Origin: a virus
Lineage: Duplodnaviria > Caudoviricetes
Strand: one strand, 5' to 3'
DNA length: 64,000 nt
Virus record (IMG/VR): IMGVR_UViG_3300033069_001745
Span: 1-64,000 of that record
Shown: piece after piece, positions 4,603 through 47,307 of the stretch
Layout: each line of letters starts with the position of its first letter
Numbering within the stretch: position 1 is the stretch's first letter
The notes under the pieces: generated by a model
What the model was told of the DNA's origin: nothing
The model's input: the letters and a program-made list of their open reading frames with translations, nothing else
Databases searched by the model: none
Program-made: the position numbers and the translations under genes

Positions 4603-6048
4603 GTGGCTTTGGATTTCGCAACCTACCGCCCACCCGGCGTGTACGTCGAGGAAGCGGCCTCCACGGTTGCGAGTACCGTGGGTACCCAGTCGACGGTGGT
4701 GGCCCTGGTCGGCCCGAGCATCGGGTACCGGACCTACACCGAGGTTGTGACCCTTCTGGGCACCGACCCCACGGCACTCACCAAGCTCGGCATCAACGCG
4801 TCGTCGGTGGTGGTCACCAGTCTCGATGGGTCGACGACCTACGAGGCGATCAACGACTACATCACCACGGGCAACAACGGTCCGGACAACAACCCAGCCA
4901 CCCAGCTCGACAACGGCCTGACGCTTGCCCGCATCATCAACGGGACCATCCCCGGGAACAGTGCGGTGCGCGTCACCTACCGCTACACCGATGCCGCCTA
5001 CTACTCTGCCGTGCGGGTGGGCGACTTCGAGGTGGTCAAGGACCTCTACGGTGAGCCGATCGACCCGGCCTCGGGCTCGATCCTCTCGCCGCTGTCCATG
5101 GGGGCCAAGATCGCCCTGGAGAACGGCGCCCGAGAGTTGGTGCTCGTTGCGGTCCCGGGTACTTCGTCGGCCAACCCGGATGACTTCCCGGCGGCCTTTG
5201 CCAAGATCGCCAACCTCTACGAGGTGGGCGTGGTCGTCCCGCTGACCGATGGCCTCACTTCGGGTTCGAGCTTCAACGCGATCGCTTCCCACCTGCGCAA
5301 CCACTGCGAGTCGGCGTCGGCGGACGGGTTCTACCGCGTCGGGGCGCTCGGCATCGACATCGGCTATAGCGGGTCCCCGACCACGGTGGCCGAGGTGGCC
5401 CCGTCGAGTCGCCTGATCGTTGCCTGGCCCAACCGGTTGCTCTACTACAACACGTTCAGCAACCAGGCCACTGAGGTGGGCGGGCAGTACCTCGCCGCGG
5501 CCTACGCCGGGCGCCTGATCAGTCGAGGGGTGCAGCACAGCCTGACCCGCAAGACGATCTCGGGTTTCGCCGGGATCTCGGCGTCATCGCTGTCGACGAT
5601 GACCAAGGCGGCCAAGGATGGTTGGTCGTCGAGCGGCGTGTCGGTCACCGAGCTGACCCGCTCCAACGCCTTGATCGTGCGACACGGTACTTCGACCGAT
5701 GTTTCTTCGACCGCCACTCGGGAGATCAGCATCACCCGGGCCAAAGACCAGATGGTGCGCCTGATCCAGGACTCCATCGATGCCGCGCAGATCGTCGGCT
5801 CCCCGCTCACCAACACGTCGGTGGTGCAGATCAAAGCCATCGTGGGCGGGGTGCTGAGTAACTGCAAGGACTCCGAGATCATCGTCGACTACTCGAACCT
5901 CGTGGGTCGAGTGCGCCCCGGCGAGCCCCAGATCATCGAAGTGAAGTTCGCGTACCGCCCCGCCTGGCCGCTCAACTACATCCTGGTGTCGTTCTCGATC
6001 GACACGACCACCGGGACAACCGAGTTCGACGCCGGTACCTCCGTCTAG
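4603..6048 (+). CDS. Contractile tail sheath protein
   Basis: 481 aa; N-terminal YRPPGVYVEE and C-terminal IIEVKFAYRPAWPLNYILVSF are typical sheath motifs. Confidence 0.9.
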   Translation: MALDFATYRPPGVYVEEAASTVASTVGTQSTVVALVGPSIGYRTYTEVVTLLGTDPTALTKLGINASSVVVTSLDGSTTYEAINDYITTGNNGPDNNPATQLDNGLTLARIINGTIPGNSAVRVTYRYTDAAYYSAVRVGDFEVVKDLYGEPIDPASGSILSPLSMGAKIALENGARELVLVAVPGTSSANPDDFPAAFAKIANLYEVGVVVPLTDGLTSGSSFNAIASHLRNHCESASADGFYRVGALGIDIGYSGSPTTVAEVAPSSRLIVAWPNRLLYYNTFSNQATEVGGQYLAAAYAGRLISRGVQHSLTRKTISGFAGISASSLSTMTKAAKDGWSSSGVSVTELTRSNALIVRHGTSTDVSSTATREISITRAKDQMVRLIQDSIDAAQIVGSPLTNTSVVQIKAIVGGVLSNCKDSEIIVDYSNLVGRVRPGEPQIIEVKFAYRPAWPLNYILVSFSIDTTTGTTEFDAGTSV

Positions 6049-11608: not shown

Positions 11609-14224
11609 ATTCCTACGCTTATCTATTCACCGGGCATTCGCGTCTTCATCGCCACCGCCCAGAACGGCACCATCGAAGTCTCCGATGACATCGCCTCGGG
11701 CTCGCTCTCACTGAAGCTCGGGCGGGCGGGCGGCCACAAGCTCGTGATGTCGTTGACCAATCAGGGGCGAAAGTACGATGGAGTGTTCACCCCGAACGAT
11801 CGCGTCGTCGTCTTCCTGAAGCGCATCCGCTGGCTCCAAGTGATGTCGGGCTACCTCGACTCGGTCCCGATGCTCAACGCCTACGCCCAGAGCATCAAGG
11901 TGGAAGCGAGCTGCACGCTCAAGCGACTCCTCTACTCGCTCTACGACCCGGGCTCGCAAGACTTCGCGGACTTGATCAGCGGCGGTCCGCAAGGGGTCGA
12001 CAACGGCTACACCGACTCCAACATGAGCAAGAGGATCATCGACGTGCTCACGCAGGTCGCCGGGTGGGAAGAGAGCAAGATCCACATAGGGGCGATCCCG
12101 GCCAACTGGTTCGAGAGCCTTTCCGATCTGTACAACACCATCTCCCCAGGCTTCAACTCGGAGTATGACCTGGGCACCGTCATTTCTGGGACCAGCCCGC
12201 TTCGTTACTCAGCGCTCACTACGACCGACACCATCCCTGGAGCGGGGATTCTCCCGAAGCGCTCGGGGCGGGTAGGTGTGGTCGGCCTCGATAGCCCGAC
12301 CCCGCCGCAGTTCGATCTCACTTACGAGGTGGGCTACACCCCGAACGACCCGTGGTACGCGTCCATGCGTTGGCCCTACCGCACCGACGACTCCACCGAC
12401 GCGGCGGCCGCCGGACTCACCCAGGACGAGAAGAACGAAGCCAAGCTCTGGTGGCGCAACCACAAGATCATGGTGGTGAACCCGAAGAACAACAAGGCGG
12501 TGGTGCTCCGCCCGGCGTTCTGGGGACCATCATCGCTCACTGGCCGAGACATCGACATCTCCCCCGAGGCGCTGAGCTACCTCGGTATGAACTCCGGCGA
12601 GTGGGTGCAGATCGGTTGGGCCCCGACCGAGCAGAACTCCAGCGCGGGCTCTACCCGATACCTCGGCCCGTTCGAGCCCCCGTCGTCCACCACCACGTCT
12701 ACGACCAATCCGAGCATCGCTGACGTGTTGGCCGGGCTCCCGCCTGACGCTTCTCCCGAAGAGATTGCCGCACGCATCAACGGAGCGGGCACCCTGGGCG
12801 AGGACGGGGTTGTCTTCGCTGCCCGAGACAACATGCAGCCCAACGCCGCGGCGGCCATGGACTTCGTGAAGCGGTACTGGCCAGCGGTTCCCAGCATCGG
12901 GGGCTATCGCACTCCCGAGTACAACGCCCAGATCGGTGGCGCCCCTAACTCGGACCACACTACCGGCCTCGCCATTGATATTTCTACCGGTAATGGCTCT
13001 GTCGAGCCAACAGAAGATCAAGTTGCACTAGGTAACTCCATTGCCTATTGGTTCTGCATGAACCCGAAGGTGTTTGGGGTACGCATCGTCATCTGGAACA
13101 ACATGATCTACTCCACTGCCGGGGCGGCCGCCTACGTCAGTGCGAGCTATGGGAACAGCCTCAACCTGAACCACCGCAACCACGTGCACGTGAGCTTCAC
13201 CAACACCGGCCAGACCTCGATGGGCCCGGCCGGTGACCCGTTCCCCGTGGCACCGAACGACTTCATGCGCACAGCGGCGACCGGGAACGCCCCGCACAGC
13301 GACCGAGTGAGCGCCATCACGCTGCCCACCACGTCCGTGACGACCTCCGGCGTGGGGGATAGCGGCCAGACGGGCTCCAGCACGCTCCTGGCCACGTTCA
13401 TGACCACTGTGGGACGGGCAGAGAGCGCTTCGTTGACGGGCAAGCGCCAACTCCTCAACGACCGCCCGGTGATGCCGCTGGTCAGCGAGCTGATGGCTGC
13501 CGGGCAACGAGACTGGTGCTCGGCACCCAACGGTGACCTCATCGCTTGGTGGCCCGACTACTTCAACATCGAGGGCACGTCCTCTCGGATCGTGGTTCAG
13601 ACGATCGAGCTGGACGGCTTTAACGTGCAATGGTCGGATCGCCCGATGGTGACCCATCAGTTCGTCGTGGGGAACCGTTCCATCGGGGAGTTTGCCGCTC
13701 CCTCGGGAAGCTCCAGTGTGATCACACCCGGCGATGTCGACTTGCTCATGCGCCAGGCGATGACCCACGGCATTGCCACCATCGACTTCCCCGAGATCCT
13801 CAAGGCGGTGCTGAACACCACCGGCCCCGGGACGGGCTGGACTGACCCCAACGCTATTTACAATCGCTTTGGGGCCCGGGTGAACACCCAGGAATTCAAG
13901 TGGGCCGCCTCACCTCAGGCAGAGTTCTGGGCAGCAGTTCACCTATTCCGTATGTCTTGGGCCTCGCAATTCTCTTCGCAACCTCGTATTGGTTTCATGC
14001 CGGAAATCTTCCCGGGCATGATCATGCAGATACCTGAGTACGGCATGCAGTGCTACGTTGATCAAGTCGAGCATTCGTGGAACCTCGGTCCTGACGGTGA
14101 CGGATTCTCGACAACGGTCTCCATCGTTGCCCCATCGACCATCGGGGACCAGCCGACGCTCATCGGGCTCCCGAAGGGCGGGCGCTGGGTCGGGGAAGAA
14201 GCCATCACCCAGAACGCCCACTAG
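11609..14224 (+). CDS. Baseplate hub protein with inserted DPBB/RlpA-like and M15-like peptidase domains; probable ATT start
   Basis: Frame is open from ATT 11609 (IPTLIYSPGIRVFI) with GGAGG 6 nt upstream and an in-frame TGA at 11603; motifs WGPSSLTGRDIDISPEAL and GGYR...SDHTTGLAIDI...HRNHVHVSF. Confidence 0.75.
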   Translation: MPTLIYSPGIRVFIATAQNGTIEVSDDIASGSLSLKLGRAGGHKLVMSLTNQGRKYDGVFTPNDRVVVFLKRIRWLQVMSGYLDSVPMLNAYAQSIKVEASCTLKRLLYSLYDPGSQDFADLISGGPQGVDNGYTDSNMSKRIIDVLTQVAGWEESKIHIGAIPANWFESLSDLYNTISPGFNSEYDLGTVISGTSPLRYSALTTTDTIPGAGILPKRSGRVGVVGLDSPTPPQFDLTYEVGYTPNDPWYASMRWPYRTDDSTDAAAAGLTQDEKNEAKLWWRNHKIMVVNPKNNKAVVLRPAFWGPSSLTGRDIDISPEALSYLGMNSGEWVQIGWAPTEQNSSAGSTRYLGPFEPPSSTTTSTTNPSIADVLAGLPPDASPEEIAARINGAGTLGEDGVVFAARDNMQPNAAAAMDFVKRYWPAVPSIGGYRTPEYNAQIGGAPNSDHTTGLAIDISTGNGSVEPTEDQVALGNSIAYWFCMNPKVFGVRIVIWNNMIYSTAGAAAYVSASYGNSLNLNHRNHVHVSFTNTGQTSMGPAGDPFPVAPNDFMRTAATGNAPHSDRVSAITLPTTSVTTSGVGDSGQTGSSTLLATFMTTVGRAESASLTGKRQLLNDRPVMPLVSELMAAGQRDWCSAPNGDLIAWWPDYFNIEGTSSRIVVQTIELDGFNVQWSDRPMVTHQFVVGNRSIGEFAAPSGSSSVITPGDVDLLMRQAMTHGIATIDFPEILKAVLNTTGPGTGWTDPNAIYNRFGARVNTQEFKWAASPQAEFWAAVHLFRMSWASQFSSQPRIGFMPEIFPGMIMQIPEYGMQCYVDQVEHSWNLGPDGDGFSTTVSIVAPSTIGDQPTLIGLPKGGRWVGEEAITQNAH

Positions 14225-15094: not shown

Positions 15095-17716
15095 TTGCCC
15101 TCGGTTGAGGATATCGCCGGTAAGATCCGTTCGACTTTGCGATTGACTGATCCCGATCTCGATACGACGATCGGCACCCCGGTACGCAAGATCATCGACG
15201 CCGTCTCCGAAGCCATCGCTGAGGCATCCACCGATGCCTACCTTGTGTCGTACCAGTACGACATCGATACGAAGTCCGGGGCGGAACTCGACGATTTCAC
15301 CCGGCTCTTCGGGTTCTCCCGACTCTCGGCCCGCCGGGCGACGGGGCTCATCACCTTCGAGCGCACCACCCCGGCGACGCAGCCCATCGTGATCCCGGCC
15401 AATACGCAGGTGGTCACCGACTCGCTCCCTCAGGTGGTGATCGCCACGGTGACTCCGGCGGTGTTCGCCATCGGCACCGAGCAGGTCACCGTGCCCGCCC
15501 AGGCGGTTACTGCGGGATCGGCGGGCAACATCCCGGCCCACTCGGTCGGGCGAGCTATCGCGTTGATCCAGGGAGTCAGCTCGTTCAGCAACACCCAGTC
15601 GTTCACTGGCGGGGCGGACGCCGAGACCGACGATGCCTACCGTTCTCGATTCAAGAGAACGGTATTCCGTAGTTTGGCCGGTACAGAGTGCCAACCCCCA
15701 GGCACACAGGTTCTCGTTCCCAAGGGGTTCTCCCCAGGTACAAATAAAATAGAGTGTGGTTATCAACCGATTGAAACCCTCTCTATCGGAGATTTGGTCG
15801 TTGCTGCTAAAAGGGGTGCAATTCTCCCACGTGGAGGAACTATAACCGGAATCACCTCTCGCAACTTTTCTGGTCAACTCATAACTGTGAAGAGCCAGGA
15901 TGGCAGAACTTCCAGGTATACCCCGAACCATCGTTGTATTGCTCGGATAATTCCAGCCCTGGATGGTAAGGCTATTCTGTATATGATGAAGAGAGGTGAT
16001 TCATACAGGGTAGGAAAAACCACCATGCGCTTGGGACATCGTCAAGATGCCGCTGGCTTGACAATGAGAATGAAGATGCAGGATGCTGATGCTATCTGGG
16101 TTCTCGATGTATTCGACACAAACGAAGAAGCATATTTGGCAGAACATCTTTGCTCATGGCAATTCGGGGTTCCTTCTGTTCAATTTATGAAGTCGAGCCA
16201 AGAGCGAGATGGCAAGCAGGAATTCCTAGATGCCTTTTGGCAGAAGATGGGGAGTTTGGAGTCCAAGGCATCTGAGTGCCTAGCATCATATGGAAGGATG
16301 ATAGAATATCCATTCCGTGAGCGAGGATCAGATAGGCAAATCTGGAGCCGGATAACAGAGGTTCGAGCCTGCAATCTGATAGATGGCATGGAGTTCATGG
16401 ACGCCGACAGGATGATGGATGAGCGCCCATGTCCGGTTCGTTATGCTTCTATTTCTGTCTCAAGAGAATTCTACGAAGGTCCAGTCTGGTCGCTGGATGT
16501 TGACAGGAATGAATACATTGCTGATGGGTTTGTAACTCACAACTCGATGTATTTGGCGACGGCATTGGAGCACCCGAGTGTTACGCAAGCCAATGTTGTC
16601 GGGGCGGTAAAGCGGCACCGAGAGCAAATCCAGATCACCAGCGGTACCGGCACTAGCTCGATCTTCGCCGCGAAGCACATCTACCCCGATACCTCGGCAC
16701 TCGGTACCACCATCGCCTCGGGGGACATCCTCACGCCTGGGGTGCACTACACCTTCAGCGCTAACCTCAACCCGCCCACGGTGACCTCGCTCAGCACGAG
16801 CGCATGCCCCGACGGCATCTACGATCTGGAGTTCGACTACCTCTCGTCGGCCAGCCGGAACGACCCTGAAAGTTTTATTTCCAACCGGGTCGACATCTGG
16901 ATCAGAGGGCAGCGGCCTACCGAGGCCGTCGAGACGATGGTCTTCAGCTCGGGGCGGACGTTCAACGCCACCCCGGGCTCGACGCTGAACAAGGACAACT
17001 GGGTTCGGGAGAGTGGCGTCACCCCCTCGGTGGACAACTTCTACCTGCCGTTCGGGTTCGCCCCGATCATCGAACCCGGCCCGACGATGAGCATCAACGG
17101 CGTCACCTACATCAAGAACCAGCACTACTGGCTCGTCGAGAACACCACGCCCAACGGGATGTCCAACCGAGGCGGGCTTTCGGGGGTCGAACTACTCTCG
17201 GTGACTAACGGTCTAGCTCTGGCCGAGCCGCCCAACGCGCACCACTGGTCCCAGGACTACACCTTCGACGCCGCCCCTCGTGACGTGGACGTAGCAGTGC
17301 AGCGGTGGCGCCTCATCACCAACGATCTGTGGGTGCACGCCGCCCGACGTATCAAGCTCCGGGCCTACTTCGCCGTCATCCTCAACCCGGGCTACGTCGC
17401 CGCGGCCGTCGAGAGTGCGGTCTACACGGCGCTCCAGACGTTCACCCAAGAGGTGAGCTTCCGGAGCGTGCTCCAGGCGTCCGATGCTCTGGCGGTGGTT
17501 CACGCCGTCCCCGGGGTAGATGCGGTGCGGTTCACCACCAGCACCGACAATGCCGTGAACTACGCCTGGCAACGGGTAGCGCCCAGCGGTGCCGTCTTGG
17601 AGACCTACGCGACGAGCGGGCGCGCCATTGACATCGAATGCACTGACGATACGGTCATCGACCTTGATGCGGTATCGCTCATTGTGAAGGCTCCGAATAC
17701 CTGGAGCACTGTCTAA
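15095..17716 (+). CDS. Baseplate J-like wedge protein interrupted by an intein
   Basis: LSARRATGLITF, VPAQAVTAGSAGNI, FTGGADAETDDAYRSR; intein between E198 and S484. Confidence 0.85.
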   Translation: MPSVEDIAGKIRSTLRLTDPDLDTTIGTPVRKIIDAVSEAIAEASTDAYLVSYQYDIDTKSGAELDDFTRLFGFSRLSARRATGLITFERTTPATQPIVIPANTQVVTDSLPQVVIATVTPAVFAIGTEQVTVPAQAVTAGSAGNIPAHSVGRAIALIQGVSSFSNTQSFTGGADAETDDAYRSRFKRTVFRSLAGTECQPPGTQVLVPKGFSPGTNKIECGYQPIETLSIGDLVVAAKRGAILPRGGTITGITSRNFSGQLITVKSQDGRTSRYTPNHRCIARIIPALDGKAILYMMKRGDSYRVGKTTMRLGHRQDAAGLTMRMKMQDADAIWVLDVFDTNEEAYLAEHLCSWQFGVPSVQFMKSSQERDGKQEFLDAFWQKMGSLESKASECLASYGRMIEYPFRERGSDRQIWSRITEVRACNLIDGMEFMDADRMMDERPCPVRYASISVSREFYEGPVWSLDVDRNEYIADGFVTHNSMYLATALEHPSVTQANVVGAVKRHREQIQITSGTGTSSIFAAKHIYPDTSALGTTIASGDILTPGVHYTFSANLNPPTVTSLSTSACPDGIYDLEFDYLSSASRNDPESFISNRVDIWIRGQRPTEAVETMVFSSGRTFNATPGSTLNKDNWVRESGVTPSVDNFYLPFGFAPIIEPGPTMSINGVTYIKNQHYWLVENTTPNGMSNRGGLSGVELLSVTNGLALAEPPNAHHWSQDYTFDAAPRDVDVAVQRWRLITNDLWVHAARRIKLRAYFAVILNPGYVAAAVESAVYTALQTFTQEVSFRSVLQASDALAVVHAVPGVDAVRFTTSTDNAVNYAWQRVAPSGAVLETYATSGRAIDIECTDDTVIDLDAVSLIVKAPNTWSTV
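15689..16543 (+). mobile_element. Intein (285 aa) with GIY-YIG-like endonuclease domain
   Basis: Starts CQPPGTQV; block B TPNHR; ends YIADGFVTHN followed by Ser; central ILYMMKRGDSYRVGKT...EEAYLAE; visibly lower GC. Confidence 0.85.
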
Positions 17717-18330
17717 TGGCCGACAGCATTCAGGGAGAGCAGCGTCCTGGGTATGCCCCGCTTCGACCGGGGATCGAGGAAGCCACCGGGCTTCTCATCG
17801 CACCGCAGACCGTCGAGCGGCGCATGCGCCACTTCCCCGAAGAGGTGTACGACACCTCACCGAACACGCACCTGTACCGCTTCGTGGCGGCCTTGGTGGG
17901 CGATTCGGGGGCGGGGCAGCTCAAGAAGCGCCTGGTGATGCAGCGGTTGGCGTCAACGCTCCAGGGCACGCACTTCTACGACCTCGACCGGTTCTACGGT
18001 GCTCTGCTCGGGCTGGACCGCCACATCGGGGAGCAGCTCTCCTCCGACCCCTACACCACGCCCCAGACCACCGATGCGTGGCAGCGCATGGCCGACCGGG
18101 ACGGTTCGTATCGCTCCCGCATCGAGCAATTCGCCCGGGCCATCAACTACGGGGCCACTGCCGTTGGTCTGGAGTTGATCGCGGAGGCCATCCTCGGCGC
18201 TGATGTCGAGATTGCAGAGAGCTTTGAATGGGCTGACGTGCGAGCCCAGTCCTACAGCCAAGTGGAGTCCCTCGGCACCTACGGTGATTTGGAGGCGTAC
18301 ACCTATGGTGACCTTGAGGTGCAAGCATGA
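17716..18330 (+). CDS. Baseplate wedge (tail I/gp7-like) N-terminal module
   Basis: 204 aa; FPEEVYD...HFYDLDRFYG...YRSRIEQFARAINYGAT; follows J. Confidence 0.7.
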   Translation: MADSIQGEQRPGYAPLRPGIEEATGLLIAPQTVERRMRHFPEEVYDTSPNTHLYRFVAALVGDSGAGQLKKRLVMQRLASTLQGTHFYDLDRFYGALLGLDRHIGEQLSSDPYTTPQTTDAWQRMADRDGSYRSRIEQFARAINYGATAVGLELIAEAILGADVEIAESFEWADVRAQSYSQVESLGTYGDLEAYTYGDLEVQA

Positions 18331-18348
18331 TGGGGATAGGTGATCACG

Positions 18349-21300
18349 GTGGCTGTTGACTTCAGGGCGCTCTATCTCCAGAAGTACCCAGCGGGCGGGA
18401 CCACGCTCTATGTCAGCGCGTCCGGCAACGACTCGAACCCCGGAACTCAGGCCAGCCCCAAGCGCCAGATCCAATCCGCCATCAACGCCATGCCTTCAGG
18501 CGGCGGCATCATTTACGTTGGTGACGGTAACTACGACGGTTTTTCGTTCTACGCCCGGAACTTCAGTGCCAATAGCTGGTGTCACGTCATCTCCCAGAAT
18601 TACCTGGGGGCAAAGATCGGCGGTGGTATCGGATTCACTCAGAGTAGCTTCGCTGGCATCTTCGGTCTCGAAGTCAACCCGAACAACCAGGGTGTCAACT
18701 GCGTCAGCATCCAGACGACGACGCACAACATCGCAGTGTGGCGGTGCTGGACCCGTAACGGCCAGGTCGGCATCGGTGCCATGGGCAACCAGGGCGACAG
18801 CTCAGCGGCGTGCAACAACGTCTACATCTGCTACAACATCGTCAGCGACAACGCCAAGGCCACGGTTGACCCTTTCGGCTCCAGTGGTATCAGCTTCTAC
18901 GACCCGTGGCAGAAGGCGATCTTCCCAGCGAGCACGGGCCCCGACCAGTACGGCTACAGCAATTACATCGTCGGAAATCTCGTCGTCTGGAACTACCAGA
19001 ACGGCGAATATGTAGACGGTAATGGCATCATCATCGACGATGGCAACCACACGCAGAACTATGGTGGCCCGTCGGGCAATGTCTACACCGAACGTACCCT
19101 CGTCATGGGTAATCTCACCGTCAAGAACGGTGGGCGAGGTATCCAGATCTTTGAGACGAGAAATGTTGACGTCGCCTTCAACACCTCGGCGTACAACAGT
19201 TGGAGGAAGAACGATTCTGCCTTCTACGGCGAAATCGGGTATAACGCAGCCTGGGGCGGGCGCATGCTGCACAACCTCTCGTACCCCGATGCCAACAATG
19301 CCTATTGGTTCAGCTACTACAACGCTGATGACATCGAGAACACCGGCAACGTGTTCCTGCGGGGCCCGCAGTACAACGCCAACGGCAACTACCCAGCGAT
19401 TGACCGTACTGCTGACGGGCTGAACTACTTCAAGAACAACGCTCCGACGGTCTCGTCTGAGTGGTCGGGGATGACCTTCACTCAGGCCGACCAGTGGCGC
19501 CCTGACGGCGGCTCGGGCGGGATCAACAAGGTCACACTCTCCCAGACGCTCTACGACGCCTTCTCGCCCTGGCCCGACATGTTCGGTGACCTGCGCCCGG
19601 CTCGCACCACGGGATGGGCCACCGGGTTCTCCGAGAGCACAGGCGGTACGGGGACCAACCCCGGCCCGGTGGCTGCGTTCACCGTGTCGAATCTCACCCC
19701 GGGTACCGGCGAGGCCGTCCAGTTCACCGACACCTCGACCGGTAGCCCGACCTCGTGGAACTGGAACTTCGGCAACGGCGCTTCGTCGACTTCCCAGAGC
19801 CCGAGCTATACCTTCACCACGGCGGGCACCTACACGGTCGTCTTGACCGCGACGAACACCAATGGGTCGTCACAGTCCACCCAGTCCGTCGTGGTCTCCG
19901 AGACCACCCAGGGCCCGGGGCTCGTCACGCACCCCGCCCTGGGCAAGCCTGGTCACTTGCTGACCTCAACTCAGGTCAGCACGACCAACTCGGGCCACCC
20001 GATCTATCGCATCAGCTATCAGATGACCTCGATCACGGGGACGATCGTCTCTGCCTCGGGTCTCGTGGCGGTGCCGTCGGGTACCGCCCCGAGTGATGGT
20101 CGACGGGTGATCCTGGCGGGCCACGGGGCCACCGGCACCAACGATGCGGCAGCGCCGTCCTATAGCCCGAACACTGGGGCGTTCTCGGGCTCGGTAGGCG
20201 ATGTGGACGCCTGGCTCAACGCCGGGTTCATCGTGGCCCAGGCCGACTACGAGGGTCTCACCTACGGGGGCGACAGCAGCTTGCCCCACCCGTACATGGT
20301 GGGTGTCTCCGCCGGGCGTTCACTCCTCGACTGCGGCATCGCCTGCTCCGGTCTGACCACCGTCCGGCGCTCGGCCGCCTCGGTGGGCTTCTCCCAGGGT
20401 GGACACGCTTCGCTCTTCGCCGGTGAGCTGGCCGACACCTACGCGGTGACCGATTCGGGTTCGGTCGAGTTCAACGTTCCCGCATTTCCTTCGGGAACCC
20501 CGATCAACGTCACCACGCTCGGGGTCTCGGCGTCATCGGGGGCCAACCAGCAGACCGCCATTCAGAACGCGTTGAACAACGCGGCGAGCGGGTCGATCAT
20601 CCAGTTCCCCGCCGGGACCTATTTGCACTCCGGCGTGCTCCAGATCAACAAGCCACTCACCATCTTCACGACGGCCGGGGCCATCTTGCGCGGTACCGAT
20701 CCGCTCAACATGGCGATCCAGGTCAATGCCGATGACGTTCGCATCGAGGGGTTCACCGTCGAGGGCGTTGGCACCTCGCGTGAGAGCAACGACGACACCC
20801 GAGGCGGCATCGCCATCTTGGGCCGGGCCCGTACGGTCATCAAGGGCTGCACGATCAAGAAGTCGAGCGCTGCCGGTCTGTACATCGACGGGGCCAGCGA
20901 TTACTACATCATCAACAACAGCGTGCAGAACACGCTCTCTGACTCGATCCACAACACCGGTTCGTCGCACCACGGCTACGTGCTGAACAACACCGTCACC
21001 GGTTCGGGCGATGACAACATCGCTATCGTCAGCTACGGCGGCCAGGACTGCAACAACATCACCGTGTTCGGAAACACCGTGACCGGTGGCAACGCCCGTG
21101 GTCTCTCGGTCGTCGGTGGGCGCGACTGCATCTTGCAGGGCAACACCGTCACCAGCTCGTCAGCGGCGGGCATCTACATTGCTTCCGAGCCTAGCTATTC
21201 GACGGAAGGCGTCTCGAATATCATCATTCGAGATAATGCGCTCTCTGGGTGTAATACCGACGTAGCCAGAAACCACGGCGGCATCTTCTTGTGGGGTGGC

Positions 21301-24300
21301 CGACCGGGCAAGCCCGTCAACAACGTCCATATTCACAACAACACCATCTCCGGCACGATCGCCGGTGGTGCCCACATGGTGGTGCAGGGCGATCAGGTCA
21401 CGGCGACCACGATGACCAACAACGCCACGTCGGGGGCGAAGCAGCATCGCTACATCGAGGCAGCGGCGGGCCAGTGGTCGGCTGCCGGGAACACCCACAA
21501 TGGCTCACCTGTGGCCGACGTAGGTACCGCGATCCCTCCGGCGAACGCATCGACCCCGACCCCGATCTTCACGCAATTCTGTGCCGTCGGCTTTGATCCG
21601 GTCGTTACTTCGCACTACGTCAATCTGATCTACCAAGCCCAGGGTTCACCGCAATACCTGGCATCCATCATCTACGGATCATGGATCGAGAACAGCTCTC
21701 TGACTCGTACGGTCGTGCTCTCTTCGGGGGCATCGAGCAACCTACCTAACCTCTTGACGTGGGACTTCAACACCACGGCATCCAACATCAACTTCGGTAA
21801 CGGGTCGTTCATCGCGAACCCGACCACCGCCGGAGGCGGCTGGGGCGCCGCCATGACCAAGAACACCCCGGGGCAGCGCAAGGCCCGTCCCAGTCGGGTC
21901 TATGCCCCGAACGGTGGCTTGGGCGGCGGTTCAACCTGGCTCTCCGCCGCGCAGACGGCGGGCACCAACGCATCGTTGGTCACCGGCTCGGGTGGCCACG
22001 AGATCATCATGGTCTCCGACGCCATCGCCTGGGTGACGAGCACACTGAACAGCCAGGGTGGCGGCGGTGGTCCCCAGGTCCCTGCGGCCAACTTCTCATG
22101 GACGCCGACGAGCCCACAGCAGAACGAGTCGGTGCAGTTCACTGACACGTCGACCAACGCGCCAACATCGTGGTTGTGGCAGTTCCCCGAGCCCGGTCAG
22201 GGCGAGGCGCAGTGGGCCACGTCGACCCAGCGCAACCCCACGAGGACCTACACCACCACTGGCACCAAGACGGTCATCCTGACCGCCACCAACACCGCCG
22301 GGTCTTCGACATCGACCAAGACCCTCACTGTGGTGGCTCCCGGTCCGCCGGTGGCCAACTTCACCACGACCCCAACGGTGGGTACGGTCGGCCAGTCAGT
22401 GCAGTTCACCGACACCTCATCGGGCTCGCCCACGTCGCGCTCGTGGGAGTTCGGTGACGGCACCACCTCGACGGCCCAGAACCCGACGAAGACCTACAGT
22501 GCGGCGGGCACCTACAACGTCTCGCTGACCGCTGCCAACGGCCAGGGGTCGCACACCGTCTCTCGTACGTTCACCGTCAACCAGCCGTCGGTGGTGGACG
22601 TCTACCAGGCGGAGAACGCCCAGATCGTCAGCTCGATGTATCCCGGCGACCCCGAGGGCATGCACGTCGTCTCCGAGGCCCCGGGATACACCGGCACGGG
22701 CTACATGGGTTACTGGGGCCAGCCCAACGAGATCCTTCGATTCTCCATCCCCGGGGCCACCGCTGGGCAATATTCGGTGAAGTGGCGCTATCAGAAGTGT
22801 GATTTCGATACCCCGACCAGTTTGCAACTGTGGGTAAACGGCGCTCAAGTGAGCGTTGTGCAATTCAGTCGAACGGGTACCGACTGGCTCGGAAACACCT
22901 GGATTGAATCTCCTGCATTGACACTCAATTTCCAGTCGGGTACCAACACCGTCGAATTGCGACACGTCGATCAGGACTGGCTCTACGTCGATCTCGACTA
23001 CATGTCGGTGCAGTCCCTCACGCCGCCTGGGAACCCGCCGGTGGCCAGCTTCACCCGGACCCCGACCGGGGCGGTGGAGACCGGGGTGAACATCAGCTTC
23101 ACCGACACCTCGACTGGTAGCCCCACTTCCTGGAACTGGGACTTCGGGGATGGGACCACGGCGACCTCCCAGAACCCGACCAAGACCTACACCGGGGCCG
23201 GGAGCTACACCATCACGCTCCAGGCGGTCAACCAGTACGGCACGGCGAGCACGACATCCACGATCACCGTCACTTCGCCCCCGCCGGTGCCCCAGCCTCC
23301 GGTGGCAGCATTCTTGGCGTCGGCCACCCAGGTCACGGTTGGCCAGGTCGTCACGTTCACCGATCAGTCGACCAACGCTCCGAACTCCTGGCACTGGAAC
23401 TTCGGGGATGGTGTGACGACGACGGCGCACAACCCGACACACGCCTGGACGGCCCCCGGGACGTACTCGGTCACTCTTATCGCGGCCAACACCGACGGCT
23501 CCGACGATGTCTCTCGACAGATCATCGTCATCGCTCCGCCGGTCCTCGAACCCGGCGACCCAATTCCGATCAACCGCTTCGAGTTCACCGTGATGCCCAA
23601 GCGGGGCCTCTCGCTGGCCGAAGAGGTGAACCTGCGCCGAGTGCTCTCGTTGTTCAAGCCCGCTGCAACCCGGTTGCACGTGCAACCTCTCGGGGATGCG
23701 GCGATCGACGACGTGCCGGTGATCCGGGTTGCTGCCGACTCCGAATGGTGGGAGGTGGTGGGCTCGGTCGTCACCCGTCCCGGTACGGAGTGGGCCTACG
23801 CCGATCCGGGTGACGTGACCACGCCTCGGGAGCAGCCCCGGCCCCCGTTCGCCTCCTACCAGGGTGAGCACTGGTCTTATGCGGGCGACGTGGCCAACAT
23901 CGTGGCCTACGCCGATGACGTGGGTCAGCTCCGACAAAACTATTTCCAGCGGGTTGCCTACGCCGACGGGACCTTCTTCGATTTCCGCCCCGACCTCGGG
24001 TGCCGGTGGCCCCAGGACGCCATCACCGAACTGTTGGCCAGTGACGGCGCCCTCGTTGCTCACCCCTTGGCCATCGAGCACACCTCGGGGAAAGAGCGGT
24101 GGGTGGATAGGGTCGGTCCCGTCCGGACACGAACCTCAATCTCTACCTCAGGTATACTCCCGCTGTATTTCAACGGGGTTTCGATTGAGGATTTGGCCCA
24201 GCGGGCCGACTCCATCTTCTCCGTGCATCGGCGTCAGGCCGGAGTACCCCAGCGGTTCTGGAGCACCACCGAGCGTCCCAAGCACGATCCGATCATCGAG

Positions 24301-27300
24301 TGCCTGGAGATTCGCCTCCGGTCGTCCCAGCGAGTGAACCGGGTCAAGTTCGAGCTGGCCCACTTTCCTCAGCGGGCGTGGTGTGAAGCATGGTCGGACG
24401 CCACCGAGAGCTGGCGCCCAGTGTGGACCTCCAACATCGTCGACTCGATCCCGTCCAACCTCGTGAACCGAGTCGATTCCATCGACCACCTGCACCCTCA
24501 GCATTCGCTATCGGGACACTGGGTGGAGTACGACCTCACGATCGATCCCACGGTGGCCTCTCGCTGGCGTCTGCGGTTGCAACGCCTGGCTACCGGGACT
24601 CCGCCCCTCAATGCGGCGGGCAAAGAGTCGGACTACAGCCTGGGCGTGCGAGGGTTCGACCTGAGCTACCACATCGCTGACCGAATCGACATCCCCCGCT
24701 TGCCGGTGGGGGAGCCGGTGGGTACTTCGGTCGACCCCCTCGGCAGTCGCATGCTCTACTCGGTGCGCGAGCGCCTGGCCCCGTTGGCAATCGACGGCGA
24801 CTCTTCAACGGCGTGGCTCTCCGAGCCCCAACCCACGGCACGAGCAGTCGTCAACTTCTATGCCGATGTGCGCACCTCGGGTGGTGACGGTCAGATCATC
24901 GACCGTTGGTACCTCGACCCGATCAAGCCGGGGCCAACCCTCAACCTCTACTACAGCAACGACACCGCCCTGGGCCGCCACCCAGCCGTTGACACGCCGC
25001 TCGGGATCGAGAAGGTCGAGGCCGAAGGGCTGTACACCGCCATTGACGACGGCATCAGCTTCGACGGCGCTGCCCCCGCCTACTTCCTCATCGATAATTC
25101 GCTGATCCAGTTTGATCACACGCGTGATTGGTGGATCGGGGTCGAGGTGCAGCCGCGATTCTCCGGTGACAACGCCGACAGCGCGATCTTCAGCTTCGAC
25201 CAGTTCACCTGCCAGTTCTCCGATCAGTCGATCGTCTTTGCCACCCCGGGCGGCGGTGACACCGTGCTCCCGCTGTCGTGGTCCGATGGGCAGGTGATTC
25301 GCCTCGTCGTGGAGTACCGAGCGAGCCAGCGCACCATCTCGATCTCCGCCCAGGTGACCTACGGCGATATCGAGTCGATCACCCAAACACTCCCGATGAC
25401 GCTCGTCGGATCGATCCACACTCTGCGCATCGGGGTCGACCCCGGTCTCTCCATCCCGCCGGATTTTGTCATCCGCAAGCTGGTCATCAACCAAAGCGGA
25501 TTGGAAGACCTAAATGATTTCCTGAGCGATCCTGACGGGTACGTCGTCAAGGCCGTGCATGCGGTGGTGGACACCGGGCGCACCAACGGCGCCATCCTCC
25601 GGATGCACCGGAACTTCGTCGACCCGGAGAGCAACCCCTTCGGGTTGGTCGGCGGTCCAGGAAACGGGTTCGCCGCACTGCGCTGGACCCCGATCCCCCG
25701 AGACTACCGCCTTCAGAAGGGGTGGCTCGACATCCCGCCGATCAAGGCGCGGTTCTGGAAGTTCGAGTTCAGCCAGCTCGTCATTGAGCCCATCGAGGTG
25801 CGCATGCCCCTGCACCGGGCGGTGCAGGTGTTCCCTCAGGTGGCGCAGAGCACCCACGTGGTGACTCGCGAAGACCCGACGATCGACATCCCGGCCTTTG
25901 ATGAGTTCTCTCGGCAGTGGCGCACCTACAGCGACACGCCTTCGCTCACCCCCGAGCCCGACCAGACGAAGATCATGCCGACGGCGTTGCTCTATTCCTC
26001 GGACCCCAGTGGCGTGCAGCGCTTGCGCTCGCAGTCGTGGTCACACGGGTTCACCGATTGGCACGTCGGCTCGGATCGTCCCCGGTTCCTCCAGGAGGGC
26101 GTGCACACTTACGACACGATCATCTACGAGCAGGCGGAGAAGATCGGCTTCTTCGTCGGGCTCAAGGAGATTCGAGCGGCCCGTACCTCGCACCGCGGGG
26201 TGGACAACCCGATGGTGATCAACGAGCGCCTCCACGACGCCACCCGGCTGGCGGTCAACCAATGGTCGCACACCGCAGGCAACCTGTGGTCGGGCTCTTC
26301 GATCACCAACCCGGCGGTTGTCGAGTCGGCCATCATCCCGACTCGTACCCGCATCAGCGCCTTGCAGTTCGCTGCCCAGATTTCCGACCCGGTGCAGCTC
26401 CTGCCCGATGACCAGTTCCGCTCGCCCCGTCTGACGGACTACAACTGGACCGATCCTCAGGGCTGGCAGCAGATCGGGGATGCCTGGATCGAGTACCGCA
26501 CCTACGACCAGCAGGTGCTCATCCGCCGGGCATATCTCCCGCCGGTCACGGCGGACCCCCTCGATCAAGGGATCGTTCGTGACATTGTGCACCCGGTGTT
26601 CTCCACCCGTGGCGCCCCCGAGAGCATCCTCCCCAGTGACTTTCCGGGAACCGTTTTCTACAGCATGGATTTCGATGCGCCAAACGGTACCGACCCGGCG
26701 ACGCTCCCACATGCTAATTTCAAGTCGTCTTCTACTGGTGGTTATCTTACCATCCAGAATAATCGCCTCAAGAGCGTCTACGGAACGGCGGCAGCGTACG
26801 GTGCTGTCAATCAATTCGCAACTACGCAACTACCTACCAAGGATATCTCCGCAGTCTTTGACGTAACGGTTGGCGATACCTCTCGTGAACATTTTGTGTT
26901 GCTCCTATGGAATCACGATTTCGTTGCGGCTGGGTGGGTATTACGAATCGAACCATCAAGCAACCAAATAAGACTGTTAACTCAGTCCGGCGGTGTTATG
27001 ACGGCTGTCGCTGTCGCTCCGGTCACGATGGTGTCTGGAGAGACGTGGCGGATTCGCTTGGAGCACCGGAACAACCAAGTCAAGGTTCGTACCTGGACCG
27101 GGCTCATCGAACCGACGGCCTGGAATATCTCCTACAACTCCTCTTGGGTTCCCGCCACGACCTACGGCGTGCAGTTCTTCTTCTACGGAGGTAACGCTGC
27201 CCGGGGCGCCACGGAGAACCCCGTGTACATCGACAACCTCGTGCTCTCGGACAAGTGGTGGGACGGAACCCCGCCGATCCCGGTGGTCGACGCCGGGGGT

Positions 27301-28221
27301 ATCCAGAGCCCACTGGTGAAGACCAGCCCCAACGGCCTCATCCACGCCGCGGCACGCATCACCGCCATCACCGATCTCACCAACCAGCTCTGGGTGCAGA
27401 TCGTGGACGAGGACGACGAGGTGCTCGTCGAGGAACCCATCGTGGCCAAGCGGGGCGACACCGTGGAGTGGACCGCGAGCTACTTCTTGGGCGATTACGG
27501 GAAAGAATCTTTCTACCTGCCCGAGTTTGGGTACCGCACCATCGTTGACGAGCCAGTGCGCCTGGTGTTCGCCCGGGAAGACGAGCTGGTCGATCAGGGA
27601 ACCAACCCTGAGCCAGTGGTGCCGGGCTACCTGTTCCGGGTGCGCCTCATCCAGAAGGGTCCGAGCACCGACACCTGGATGGTGGACCGCCTCTCGCTCT
27701 TCGACGAGTCGTTGGTATGGGAGTTCTCCGTGGACGGCGGGAACAACTACATCCCCGCCTACACGATCAAGAACAACCCCCACGGGCTCTTGACCTTCCC
27801 TCGGCCAGGTAACGCCCTACGCTGGCGTCTGACCGCCTACCGGGCCAACCTGCATCTCTCGGCGGTGCAGATCCGGCCCCAGTACGTCAACCACCCCACG
27901 CACCGGTTCTCCAACCCTCAGCGGGGACCCAACGTGTCGGTCTACGACCAGTGGCTCCCGATCCAGGAGGACCCGGAGTTCAAGCGGTGGTCGCGTCCGG
28001 TACCCCAGTATTGGTGGCTCGAAGGTTCGAGCTTCAACACCAACGTCCCGGTCGATGGCTTCACCTACTCGAACGAGTATTCGGACTCCTACGAGCGCGA
28101 GGTGATCGACAACATTCGCGTCACCTTCAGCGACTCCACGAGCCGTGAGGTGCACTACATCCGCCTGATTGAAACGGCGCTGGGTGTACCGGTGGACACC
28201 GCAACGATCACGTTGCTCTAA
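18349..28221 (+). CDS. Giant (~3290 aa) baseplate/receptor-binding protein: beta-helix, 5 PKD, lipase, second beta-helix, CBM35-like, then structural tail domains
   Basis: GTG 18349 preceded by AGGTGAT (track start 18340 is in the same frame); repeated FTDTS..SPTSW.W.FG.G PKD motifs; GFSQGG nucleophile elbow; YQAENA...GYTGTGY CBM35-like. Confidence 0.85.
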   Translation: MAVDFRALYLQKYPAGGTTLYVSASGNDSNPGTQASPKRQIQSAINAMPSGGGIIYVGDGNYDGFSFYARNFSANSWCHVISQNYLGAKIGGGIGFTQSSFAGIFGLEVNPNNQGVNCVSIQTTTHNIAVWRCWTRNGQVGIGAMGNQGDSSAACNNVYICYNIVSDNAKATVDPFGSSGISFYDPWQKAIFPASTGPDQYGYSNYIVGNLVVWNYQNGEYVDGNGIIIDDGNHTQNYGGPSGNVYTERTLVMGNLTVKNGGRGIQIFETRNVDVAFNTSAYNSWRKNDSAFYGEIGYNAAWGGRMLHNLSYPDANNAYWFSYYNADDIENTGNVFLRGPQYNANGNYPAIDRTADGLNYFKNNAPTVSSEWSGMTFTQADQWRPDGGSGGINKVTLSQTLYDAFSPWPDMFGDLRPARTTGWATGFSESTGGTGTNPGPVAAFTVSNLTPGTGEAVQFTDTSTGSPTSWNWNFGNGASSTSQSPSYTFTTAGTYTVVLTATNTNGSSQSTQSVVVSETTQGPGLVTHPALGKPGHLLTSTQVSTTNSGHPIYRISYQMTSITGTIVSASGLVAVPSGTAPSDGRRVILAGHGATGTNDAAAPSYSPNTGAFSGSVGDVDAWLNAGFIVAQADYEGLTYGGDSSLPHPYMVGVSAGRSLLDCGIACSGLTTVRRSAASVGFSQGGHASLFAGELADTYAVTDSGSVEFNVPAFPSGTPINVTTLGVSASSGANQQTAIQNALNNAASGSIIQFPAGTYLHSGVLQINKPLTIFTTAGAILRGTDPLNMAIQVNADDVRIEGFTVEGVGTSRESNDDTRGGIAILGRARTVIKGCTIKKSSAAGLYIDGASDYYIINNSVQNTLSDSIHNTGSSHHGYVLNNTVTGSGDDNIAIVSYGGQDCNNITVFGNTVTGGNARGLSVVGGRDCILQGNTVTSSSAAGIYIASEPSYSTEGVSNIIIRDNALSGCNTDVARNHGGIFLWGGRPGKPVNNVHIHNNTISGTIAGGAHMVVQGDQVTATTMTNNATSGAKQHRYIEAAAGQWSAAGNTHNGSPVADVGTAIPPANASTPTPIFTQFCAVGFDPVVTSHYVNLIYQAQGSPQYLASIIYGSWIENSSLTRTVVLSSGASSNLPNLLTWDFNTTASNINFGNGSFIANPTTAGGGWGAAMTKNTPGQRKARPSRVYAPNGGLGGGSTWLSAAQTAGTNASLVTGSGGHEIIMVSDAIAWVTSTLNSQGGGGGPQVPAANFSWTPTSPQQNESVQFTDTSTNAPTSWLWQFPEPGQGEAQWATSTQRNPTRTYTTTGTKTVILTATNTAGSSTSTKTLTVVAPGPPVANFTTTPTVGTVGQSVQFTDTSSGSPTSRSWEFGDGTTSTAQNPTKTYSAAGTYNVSLTAANGQGSHTVSRTFTVNQPSVVDVYQAENAQIVSSMYPGDPEGMHVVSEAPGYTGTGYMGYWGQPNEILRFSIPGATAGQYSVKWRYQKCDFDTPTSLQLWVNGAQVSVVQFSRTGTDWLGNTWIESPALTLNFQSGTNTVELRHVDQDWLYVDLDYMSVQSLTPPGNPPVASFTRTPTGAVETGVNISFTDTSTGSPTSWNWDFGDGTTATSQNPTKTYTGAGSYTITLQAVNQYGTASTTSTITVTSPPPVPQPPVAAFLASATQVTVGQVVTFTDQSTNAPNSWHWNFGDGVTTTAHNPTHAWTAPGTYSVTLIAANTDGSDDVSRQIIVIAPPVLEPGDPIPINRFEFTVMPKRGLSLAEEVNLRRVLSLFKPAATRLHVQPLGDAAIDDVPVIRVAADSEWWEVVGSVVTRPGTEWAYADPGDVTTPREQPRPPFASYQGEHWSYAGDVANIVAYADDVGQLRQNYFQRVAYADGTFFDFRPDLGCRWPQDAITELLASDGALVAHPLAIEHTSGKERWVDRVGPVRTRTSISTSGILPLYFNGVSIEDLAQRADSIFSVHRRQAGVPQRFWSTTERPKHDPIIECLEIRLRSSQRVNRVKFELAHFPQRAWCEAWSDATESWRPVWTSNIVDSIPSNLVNRVDSIDHLHPQHSLSGHWVEYDLTIDPTVASRWRLRLQRLATGTPPLNAAGKESDYSLGVRGFDLSYHIADRIDIPRLPVGEPVGTSVDPLGSRMLYSVRERLAPLAIDGDSSTAWLSEPQPTARAVVNFYADVRTSGGDGQIIDRWYLDPIKPGPTLNLYYSNDTALGRHPAVDTPLGIEKVEAEGLYTAIDDGISFDGAAPAYFLIDNSLIQFDHTRDWWIGVEVQPRFSGDNADSAIFSFDQFTCQFSDQSIVFATPGGGDTVLPLSWSDGQVIRLVVEYRASQRTISISAQVTYGDIESITQTLPMTLVGSIHTLRIGVDPGLSIPPDFVIRKLVINQSGLEDLNDFLSDPDGYVVKAVHAVVDTGRTNGAILRMHRNFVDPESNPFGLVGGPGNGFAALRWTPIPRDYRLQKGWLDIPPIKARFWKFEFSQLVIEPIEVRMPLHRAVQVFPQVAQSTHVVTREDPTIDIPAFDEFSRQWRTYSDTPSLTPEPDQTKIMPTALLYSSDPSGVQRLRSQSWSHGFTDWHVGSDRPRFLQEGVHTYDTIIYEQAEKIGFFVGLKEIRAARTSHRGVDNPMVINERLHDATRLAVNQWSHTAGNLWSGSSITNPAVVESAIIPTRTRISALQFAAQISDPVQLLPDDQFRSPRLTDYNWTDPQGWQQIGDAWIEYRTYDQQVLIRRAYLPPVTADPLDQGIVRDIVHPVFSTRGAPESILPSDFPGTVFYSMDFDAPNGTDPATLPHANFKSSSTGGYLTIQNNRLKSVYGTAAAYGAVNQFATTQLPTKDISAVFDVTVGDTSREHFVLLLWNHDFVAAGWVLRIEPSSNQIRLLTQSGGVMTAVAVAPVTMVSGETWRIRLEHRNNQVKVRTWTGLIEPTAWNISYNSSWVPATTYGVQFFFYGGNAARGATENPVYIDNLVLSDKWWDGTPPIPVVDAGGIQSPLVKTSPNGLIHAAARITAITDLTNQLWVQIVDEDDEVLVEEPIVAKRGDTVEWTASYFLGDYGKESFYLPEFGYRTIVDEPVRLVFAREDELVDQGTNPEPVVPGYLFRVRLIQKGPSTDTWMVDRLSLFDESLVWEFSVDGGNNYIPAYTIKNNPHGLLTFPRPGNALRWRLTAYRANLHLSAVQIRPQYVNHPTHRFSNPQRGPNVSVYDQWLPIQEDPEFKRWSRPVPQYWWLEGSSFNTNVPVDGFTYSNEYSDSYEREVIDNIRVTFSDSTSREVHYIRLIETALGVPVDTATITLL

Positions 28222-47206: not shown

Positions 47207-47307
47207 ACCCACCGAGGGCCAAGGGGGTTCCCAGGAGGGCGGTGGGGCTGTTACCTCCGCTCTCCTGGGATCACTTCGTTCGTTCGACGCGCCTGGAAGA
47301 GGTTTCG

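Follow-up and report, generated by a model that had tools for sequence, protein, structure and literature searches.

Virion-associated depolymerases and esterases are already well known. The beta-helix tailspikes of P22, Sf6 and HK620, the tailspike proteins (TSPs) of CBA120, phi29 gp12 and Dettilon gp208 carry one catalytic helix per chain, with the anchor at the N-terminal and the enzyme at the C-terminal end. Most virion lipases are known from prediction and not from tests (PMC5380687), and in the Vibrio phage Peru-2 (described in a preprint) a GDSL lipase/esterase (P2_42) is found beside a beta-helix tailspike (P2_41), the two being separate proteins. Here we describe P0001, the predicted product of a giant open reading frame (ORF) in a 64,000-nucleotide stretch of viral DNA (Duplodnaviria; Caudoviricetes; positions 1 to 64,000 of IMG/VR virus record IMGVR_UViG_3300033069_001745; this whole stretch is referred to as the window). 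As compared to the tailspikes listed above, P0001 has two different helices and shows the reverse arrangement, i.e., enzymes at the N-terminal and the predicted anchor at the C-terminal end, and it adds an esterase, a carbohydrate-binding module (CBM35) and five PKD spacers on one 3293-residue chain.

We hypothesize that P0001 as a whole is a baseplate depolymerase/esterase array, encoded by a cassette in a baseplate gene (gene A) and acting on host surface polysaccharide, an explanation that we hold to be probable though far from assured. Stripping of capsule or exopolysaccharide (EPS) represents the best reading, as P0001 is encoded in the tail module and as its enzyme-type domains have their conserved polar residues intact. 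The ORF and its parts are arranged as follows.

18340..28221, plus strand: giant ORF encoding P0001 (3293 residues, uninterrupted over ~9.9 kb), probable start at 18349
18397..19659, plus strand: beta-helix 1 (residues ~20-440), right-handed, DUF1565/Pel9A-like, putative polysaccharide lyase; 44 homologues
19666..19914, plus strand: PKD domain 1, from Pfam PKD/PKD_4 and PDB PKD matches for residues 439-521
19924..20445, plus strand: LIP-family alpha/beta-hydrolase, N half (residues 529-702), from alignment to 51 LIP proteins and a weak PF03583 match
20446..21561, plus strand: nested beta-helix 2 (residues 703-1074), RbmB/AlgE/GH28-like fold, in the hydrolase loop that joins helix alphaC to the following core strand
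21562..22074, plus strand: LIP-family hydrolase, C half (residues 1075-1245), with core strand, D1086, cap helices, Gly-rich site and His1220
22081..22338, plus strand: PKD domain 2 (Pfam, PDB)
22345..22584, plus strand: PKD domain 3 (Pfam, PDB)
22600..23019, plus strand: CBM35-like carbohydrate-binding module (residues 1421-1560; PF16990)
23038..23274, plus strand: PKD domain 4 (Pfam, PDB)
23296..23538, plus strand: PKD domain 5 (Pfam, PDB)
23551..24129, plus strand: C-terminal fragment of gene A (residues 1738-1930), resuming at residue 205 of the relative P0011; weak DUF7297 match
24136..26640, plus strand: gene B part 1 (residues 1933-2767), homologue of actinophage 'minor tail protein' (phrog_2840; Phrappuccino gp88, Bxz1, Myrna, Pupper)
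26641..27294, plus strand: variable slot (residues 2768-2985), absent from the relatives P0002, P0003 and P0011
27295..28221, plus strand: conserved C-terminal domain of gene B (residues 2986-3293) and stop codon, from identity to relatives

A first-pass annotation of this DNA had listed two beta-helices, a hydrolase, a CBM35-like module and the PKD spacers on one protein. All of these domains do fall, in the order given there, within the single ORF (18340/18349-28221), with E-values far beyond chance, and the domain starts agree (PKD domains at 19666, 22081, 22345, 23038 and ~23296; CBM35 at 22600-23019). The start at 18349 given in that annotation also appears to be right, as this GTG is preceded by a Shine-Dalgarno (SD)-like AGGTGA 6 nt upstream and the alignments of relatives begin at residue 4. 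The hydrolase, a real one, had been placed ahead of beta-helix 2 and in fact flanks it (residues 529-702 and 1075-1245).

The hydrolase is interrupted 18 residues after its nucleophile (Ser685) by a whole beta-helix of 372 residues (703-1074). For comparison we used relatives of P0001 obtained from other metagenomes by a whole-length search (P0002, P0003, P0008, P0011, P0091, P0178, P0200 and P0235). In BLAST comparisons, the hydrolase was uninterrupted in P0091, P0178 and P0200, in one copy in P0003 and in two copies in P0002, and the 702|1075 boundary of P0001 matched 670|671 of P0091 as an exact junction. As the hydrolases of these relatives run uninterrupted across 702|1075, residues 703-1074 of P0001 represent an insertion. 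The insertion point is also filled in P0003 (372 residues), P0008 (~430 residues) and P0002 (a larger unit), indicating that the nested unit is a conserved module and not an accident of this contig. A limited literature check, made without a search aimed at nesting, found no described case of a beta-helix nested in an alpha/beta-hydrolase.

With the insert excised and the two halves rejoined, the hydrolase of P0001 matched 51 LIP-family (PF03583) proteins column by column, and a second alignment, anchored on P0091, gave the same mapping of the hydrolase columns. The fold was read from an AlphaFold2 model of the uninterrupted P0091 (61-64% identical), rather than from the halves of P0001; the model had a mean predicted local distance difference test (pLDDT) value of 82.9, with most of the hydrolase above 90. 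In this model the junction falls in a loop between helix alphaC (residues 654-669, right after Ser653) and the strand formed by residues 675-681. The top 12 Foldseek matches of P0091 were all LIP-type structures (3h2j, 2veo, 3guu, 9jcb, 3zpx, 4ezi; E-values from 3e-11 to 2e-9); the best match of the hydrolase was the cell-wall-degrading esterase LipA of Xanthomonas oryzae (3h2j), and other top folds included Candida antarctica lipase A and a CalA-like lipase (2veo/3guu) and Legionella lpg1103 (4ezi). On the N half of P0001, PF03583 scored 16.7 bits (below the cut-off of 23); that P0001 shows no full-length match to this family is a consequence of the split, and P0002, P0008 and P0003 pass with 75.2, 45.9 and 30.7 bits, respectively. 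The designation 'lipase' used in the first-pass annotation is thus right as to the alpha/beta-hydrolase and too specific as a name, since the domain is of the LIP family with an esterase as best structural match and has lost the canonical Asp.

The nucleophile Ser685 (nt 20392-20394) is located in a GFSQGG motif, with the oxyanion HG at residues 595-596; His1220 is encoded by nt 21997-21999 and D1086 by nt 21595-21597. Ser685 and His1220 both occupy columns with 100% conservation across the 51 LIP proteins. In the LIP family, the column of the canonical catalytic acid ('QGxxDxxV' motif after the penultimate core strand) is 98% Asp; P0001 and all phage-type copies have Gly (Gly1192/1193) or a gap there, and the conserved Cys pair of the family is also absent from the phage copies. 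At the position of D1086 (motif V-G/A-F/I-D/E-P), all phage copies have an acidic residue (Asp or Glu) in place of the Ala of the cellular family. Ser, the D/E at 1086 and His are kept in every alignable phage-type copy (about 9 distinct copies after removal of near-duplicates; 27-70% identity), and in the P0091 model the equivalent of D1086, D682, ends the strand after the insertion point. Given this conservation and the placement of D1086 at a strand end, we infer a Ser685-His1220-Asp1086 triad in which D1086, one strand earlier than the canonical residue, is probably a relocated catalytic acid. A catalytic acid shifted to the preceding strand is found in other alpha/beta-hydrolases (e.g., pancreatic lipase and some haloalkane dehalogenases).

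Beta-helix 1 scored below the Pfam cut-offs (DUF1565, 19.2 bits vs. 20.3); its 44 homologues carry Beta_helix (PF13229), DUF1565 (PF07602) and PF22842. It retains D31, N166, S182, N213, D226-G-N-G, D233, N263, N281 and N312, i.e., every polar residue that is invariant across 27 homologues. In the model of P0091 (47% identical in this region) the domain has a beta-helix fold, with PL9 lyases among the structural matches (5olr, 1ru4; E ~1e-5). Beta-helix 2 passes the Pfam cut-off (Beta_helix, PF13229; 67.8 bits, residues 845-1022), and its model shows a beta-helix fold with pLDDT above 90. Its core (residues 717-1060) has free-standing homologues of ~400 residues with 40-45% identity; a search of representative proteins with a query that included PKD domain 2 gave ~12 informative matches in a list filled by PKD matches. 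A scan of genome contigs for beta-helix 2 gave no match, a scan of viral contigs gave one distant match, and a single-protein scan of viral contigs gave none. RbmB was the best structural match, with phage tailspikes and GH28 only a few Z units behind. Beta-helix 2 and all of its free-standing homologues have an invariant set of residues in common (D868, H871, D891, D892, R920, E950 and H979), which argues that beta-helix 2 is an enzyme rather than a scaffold. The first-pass annotation had made catalytic residues a check on its proposal, and the outcome is divided: Ser, His and the polar residues of the beta-helices are kept, but Gly replaces the canonical LIP Asp.

These residues also bear on whether the array might be a non-catalytic adhesin, i.e., a receptor-binding fibre built of multivalent binding modules with a degenerate hydrolase. 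Loss of the canonical LIP Asp in all phage copies would fit such a fibre, as would the scores of beta-helix adhesins such as PfbA, which are nearly as high as those of enzymes, and the placement of beta-helix 1 and the LIP domain under the Pfam cut-offs in P0001. However, conservation of Ser, His and the alternative acid down to 27% identity would be unexpected for a dead enzyme, both beta-helices keep every polar residue invariant in cellular homologues, and relatives add bona fide enzymes (e.g., GH46 at 221 bits). Overall, we consider it unlikely that the array serves as an adhesin.

The CBM35 family (PF16990) scored 28.9 bits on the isolated segment (cut-off 28) and 20.2 bits in the whole-protein scan; the orthologous modules of P0002 and P0003 scored 35-38 bits, and the segment showed a weak PDB match to the CBM35 of CsxA (2vzp). 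CBM35 modules often bind uronic acids. The PKD domains form five stretches, with scores of 242 (PKD_4) and 187 bits for the PKD families (PF00801/PF18911) and PDB PKD matches down to E 4e-14. A comparison of the chain to a mini-cellulosome, made in the first-pass annotation, holds as an analogy only, as no cohesin or dockerin families were found in Pfam scans of the whole of P0001 or of its segments (E up to 1). At the DNA level, the PKD spacers show 63-76% identity over 131 nt (19705-19835, 22387-22517, 23080-23210 and 23338-23468), and they may be the sites at which recombination shuffles the modules in P0002, P0003 and P0008.

A PL9-like helix, an RbmB/AlgE/GH28-like helix, CBM35 and a cell-wall-type esterase together resemble a degradation set of the pectin or alginate type, which points to an acylated, probably acidic, surface polysaccharide; the substrate would be an acylated, probably uronic-acid-containing, EPS or capsule. 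The esterase could alternatively be directed at lipids, i.e., P0001 could provide the virion with a LysB-like tool acting on mycolyl or other acyl esters of the actinobacterial outer layer, with the beta-helices cutting glycans (arabinogalactan, glucan capsule). The LIP family does include true lipases (CalA, CalA-like), and cellular homologues of the P0001 domains include proteins from Actinomycetota, Streptomyces and a Mycobacterium metagenome-assembled genome. Moreover, of the 227 cultured phages with a match to the sheath or gene B, only 4 have hosts outside the mycolic-acid genera Mycobacterium, Gordonia and Rhodococcus, and phages of these genera depend on LysB esterases to get through the mycolic layer when the host is lysed (PMC6116005). 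Conversely, the best structural match of the hydrolase is a cell-wall esterase and not a lipase, CBM35 and the PL9-like and RbmB/AlgE-like helices indicate a polysaccharide (probably an acidic one), and chain-length preference is not readable from sequence. The sheath and the C-terminal half of P0001 share only 25-34% identity with the cultured phages, and the host is therefore not established. On balance, a lipid-directed esterase seems as unlikely to us as the adhesin.

Judging from these matches, the phage is an uncultured, contractile-tailed one that is distantly related to large myoviruses of Mycobacterium, Gordonia and Rhodococcus, and its host is probably actinobacterial. The window is part of an 81-kb IMG/VR virus contig that is metagenome-derived and estimated to be 57% complete. 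A LysB-type cutinase, which might have served as a host marker, was not found on this contig, and its absence is uninformative as the contig is only 57% complete; no tRNAs were found on the contig either, and megablast of the enzyme array against cultured phages gave no nucleotide match.

As judged from the nested geometry, the domains more likely act in a coupled manner on one chain than one after another on separate layers. In its furthest form, P0001 would be a machine with two active sites, in which the LIP esterase (with its migrated acid) and the enclosed lyase or glycosidase act on one actinobacterial acyl-glycan or glycolipid (e.g., arabinogalactan-type or EPS glycans that bear mycolyl or other acyl esters), and the cassette would be mobile, splitting a baseplate gene whose fragments reassemble non-covalently. 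We regard this combination as quite unlikely. If it were true, the particle could breach a lipid-glycan envelope from outside, and we know of no virion enzyme for such a breach in phages of mycolic-acid bacteria.

Enzyme modules vary considerably among the relatives. P0003 (3755 residues) carries beta-helix 1, an uninterrupted hydrolase, the nested unit, a GH46 chitosanase, CBM35 and PKD domains; P0002 (4640 residues) carries three hydrolase copies and duplicated helices; P0008 represents a further module variant; and more distant relatives do not carry the enzyme array. This module shuffling argues for selection on enzymatic content. The GH46 chitosanase of P0003 is full-length (residues 1729-1936; 221 bits), a hint that the phage group that includes P0001 and P0003 targets, among others, polymers with glucosamine. 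The relatives also bear on whether P0001 could be an artefact, i.e., the product of a chimeric metagenome assembly or a mis-joined ORF. The contig is a fragment derived from a metagenome, and PKD repeats could in principle mislead an assembler; however, the reading frame is uninterrupted over 9.9 kb, the same junctions (from PKD domain 5 into the C-terminal fragment of gene A, and from hydrolase into beta-helix and back) occur in independent assemblies (P0002, P0003, P0008 and P0235; 42-64% identity), the PKD copies are only 63-76% identical in DNA sequence, and base composition is uniform. We consider an artefact extremely unlikely.

The first-pass annotation had taken P0001 for a baseplate protein, and its position supports assignment to the tail module: the ORF lies directly after Baseplate_J and the N-terminal fragment of gene A, and this order is syntenic with Phrappuccino gp85-gp88. 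Two features immediately upstream of P0001 define the junction.

17716..18330, plus strand: N-terminal fragment of gene A (DUF7297 / phrog_2813), 204 residues, a separate polypeptide
18328..18348, plus strand: junction, read from the sequence: TGA stop, TGG GGA, TAG stop, SD-like AGGTGA, GTG at 18340, GTG at 18349

Gene A encodes one protein (~430-455 residues) in 11 IMG/VR loci (L005-L015), in P0011 and in Phrappuccino (gp87), and is split in the P0001 contig. The 204-residue ORF matches residues 1-204 of P0011 (55% identity, E 1e-74), the start of gene A in L005-L015 and Phrappuccino gp87, and positions 9-156 of the 449 in the DUF7297 profile (E 2e-32). P0001 continues at residue 1738 with residue 205 of P0011, which has no enzyme array, and residues 1738-1930 of P0001 show a weak DUF7297 match (profile positions 171-241). 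By these alignments, a 5.2-kb cassette is inserted in gene A at codon 204|205. Behind the enzymes, P0001 continues as a fusion of the C-terminal gene A fragment with the minor-tail gene that follows (gene B); in the 11 IMG/VR loci and Phrappuccino, gene A and gene B (~1190-1780 residues), or a fusion of the two, follow Baseplate_J without enzymes. Stop-codon readthrough from the 204-residue ORF into P0001 was considered and rejected, as two in-frame stops lie between them; with simple readthrough excluded, the cassette would supply its own translation start. P0002 and P0003 share the junction between PKD domain 5 and the C-terminal fragment of gene A, and the 204-residue ORF has no match in either, suggesting that the split is ancestral to the array-bearing clade.

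The C-terminal domain of gene B shows 55-62% identity to P0002, P0003 and P0011 and 30-38% identity to the IMG/VR loci. The variable slot (residues 2768-2985) matched nothing in Pfam or PDB and gave no more than a weak lead in the Atlas (DUF6645, score 0.92), and could be a host-specificity or receptor-binding module. In L008 this slot is occupied by a different segment of ~580 residues.

The order of anchor and enzymes raises another alternative, namely that the array is not present on the infecting particle, being cleaved off at assembly, or that it acts mainly at release (as a receptor-destroying or biofilm-dispersing activity). Proteolytic release is conceivable as the array is N-terminal to the anchor and joined to it by PKD linkers, and RbmB, the best structural match of beta-helix 2, is a biofilm-dispersal enzyme. 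On the other hand, the array forms one translation product with two baseplate proteins, the homologues of which carry annotations as virion structural or minor tail proteins, and no protease site or separate ORF was seen. We consider this alternative very unlikely; an enzyme that stays tethered can work at entry as well as at release, so that it overlaps with the depolymerase/esterase array that we favor.

Under the favored explanation, P0001 could function as follows. The first 204 residues of gene A would be made as a separate small protein, and the C-terminal 1550 residues of P0001 would anchor it at the baseplate periphery, presumably by re-associating with the 204-residue fragment, so that a flexible enzyme chain, formed by the N-terminal 1737 residues, extends outward. 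Upon contact with a host, CBM35 and the grooves of the beta-helices would bind surface polysaccharide, both beta-helices would cut the polysaccharide backbone (by lyase or hydrolase chemistry), and the esterase would strip acyl substituents by means of Ser685, His1220 and the relocated acid D1086. Nesting may keep the esterase pocket beside the glycanase groove, allowing for de-esterification and chain cleavage on the same polymer, and the path would thus be cleared for the baseplate to reach the cell wall.

Several points weigh against this explanation. The hydrolase fold derives from P0091 (61-64% identical) and not from the halves of P0001 itself, the canonical LIP catalytic Asp is lost (Gly1192/1193), and the relocated acid is proposed solely from conservation and from the position of D1086 at a strand end. 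The top matches of beta-helix 2 are nearly tied across polysaccharide lyase, epimerase, GH28 and tailspike classes, so that lyase and hydrolase can not be told apart, and beta-helix folds also occur in non-catalytic adhesins, with PfbA among the matches. In addition, the CBM35 score is marginal in P0001, and the nearest cultured phages share only 25-34% identity. Presence in the virion, catalytic activity, substrate and actinobacterial host, as well as site coupling and copy number, all rest on inference.

The surrounding tail module includes the following features.

4603-6048: sheath, contractile-tail module
11744-14224: structural protein of 826 residues with Peptidase_M15_3 at residues 355-420 (Pfam); endolysin/tape-measure-like PHROG matches
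15095-17716: Baseplate_J, 873 residues

The product of 11744-14224 is likely a peptidoglycan hydrolase associated with the virion, and as such would be a complement to the surface enzymes of P0001. Baseplate_J is longer here (873 residues) than in IMG/VR relatives (~605-610 residues); an insert of ~275 residues in its middle (about 15722-16543) has no counterpart in L005, L006 and L014, and Pfam shows no intein domain in this insert at E <= 0.01. The idea that the window lacks a ~605-residue gene present in relatives proved wrong, as that gene is Baseplate_J (15095-17716 of the window). Downstream of the tail module is a replication module (helicases, DnaB, DnaE-type polymerase, RecA). The DnaE-type DNA polymerase III alpha subunit (1495 residues, 46768-51255) may carry an intein; Intein_splicing scored 34 bits at residues 1162-1439 (cut-off 35.8).

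If its domains are active, P0001 would place an exceptionally large set of enzymes on one phage tail protein and would show a natural way of linking de-esterification to glycan cleavage. The locus would also provide an example of a structural gene that tolerates a 5-kb insertion through splitting and reassembly, and the exchange of modules among related phages (extra lipase copies, the GH46 chitosanase) could serve for studies of host-range evolution. Little is understood of how actinobacterial phage particles get through capsule and lipid-rich outer layers, and an esterase on the virion would be a concrete candidate for a role in this process; the P0001 domains are also candidate enzymes for degradation of biofilm or EPS.

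Like members of the LIP/CalA family (LipA, Candida antarctica lipase A, lpg1103), the hydrolase of P0001 has a capped alpha/beta core, a GxSQGG elbow, an HG oxyanion and a C-terminal His. Unlike them, it has Gly in place of the canonical Asp, an Asp/Glu one strand earlier and no Cys pair; furthermore, it holds a 372-residue beta-helix after alphaC, and it is part of a phage structural protein instead of being secreted. The compact beta-helix 2 (~360 residues) is closer in appearance to bacterial RbmB/AlgE modules than to a tailspike. With Peru-2, the SGNH deacetylase tailspikes of Vi-phages, the predicted lipases of Cellulophaga phages and the C-terminal lipase/esterase of phi11 Tal, P0001 would share an esterase or lipase on the particle beside a pectin-lyase fold; those virion esterases are of the GDSL/SGNH type, whereas in P0001 a LIP-family enzyme encloses the putative glycanase in the same fold unit.

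Among the actinophage myoviruses, Phrappuccino (gp87/gp88), Bxz1, Myrna and Pupper have homologues of the 204-residue ORF and of the C-terminal 1550 residues of P0001, in the same order after Baseplate_J. In these phages the homologues form two ordinary genes without enzyme domains, whereas in the P0001 contig gene A is split and its C-terminal fragment is fused to gene B. Secreted carbohydrate-active enzyme (CAZyme) chains and cellulosomes resemble P0001 in their catalytic modules arranged as beads on a string, with a CBM and PKD linkers; P0001 differs from cellulosomes in that it has no cohesin, dockerin or signal peptide logic and is covalently part of a predicted virion protein. To call P0001 an undescribed system, as had been suggested, is an overstatement, and it is better described as an unusual variant of the virion-associated depolymerases. 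What is new is that one baseplate protein combines three enzyme-type domains with a CBM and PKD spacers, that a whole beta-helix is nested in a LIP hydrolase with a putative relocated acid, and that the array is inserted in a split structural gene.

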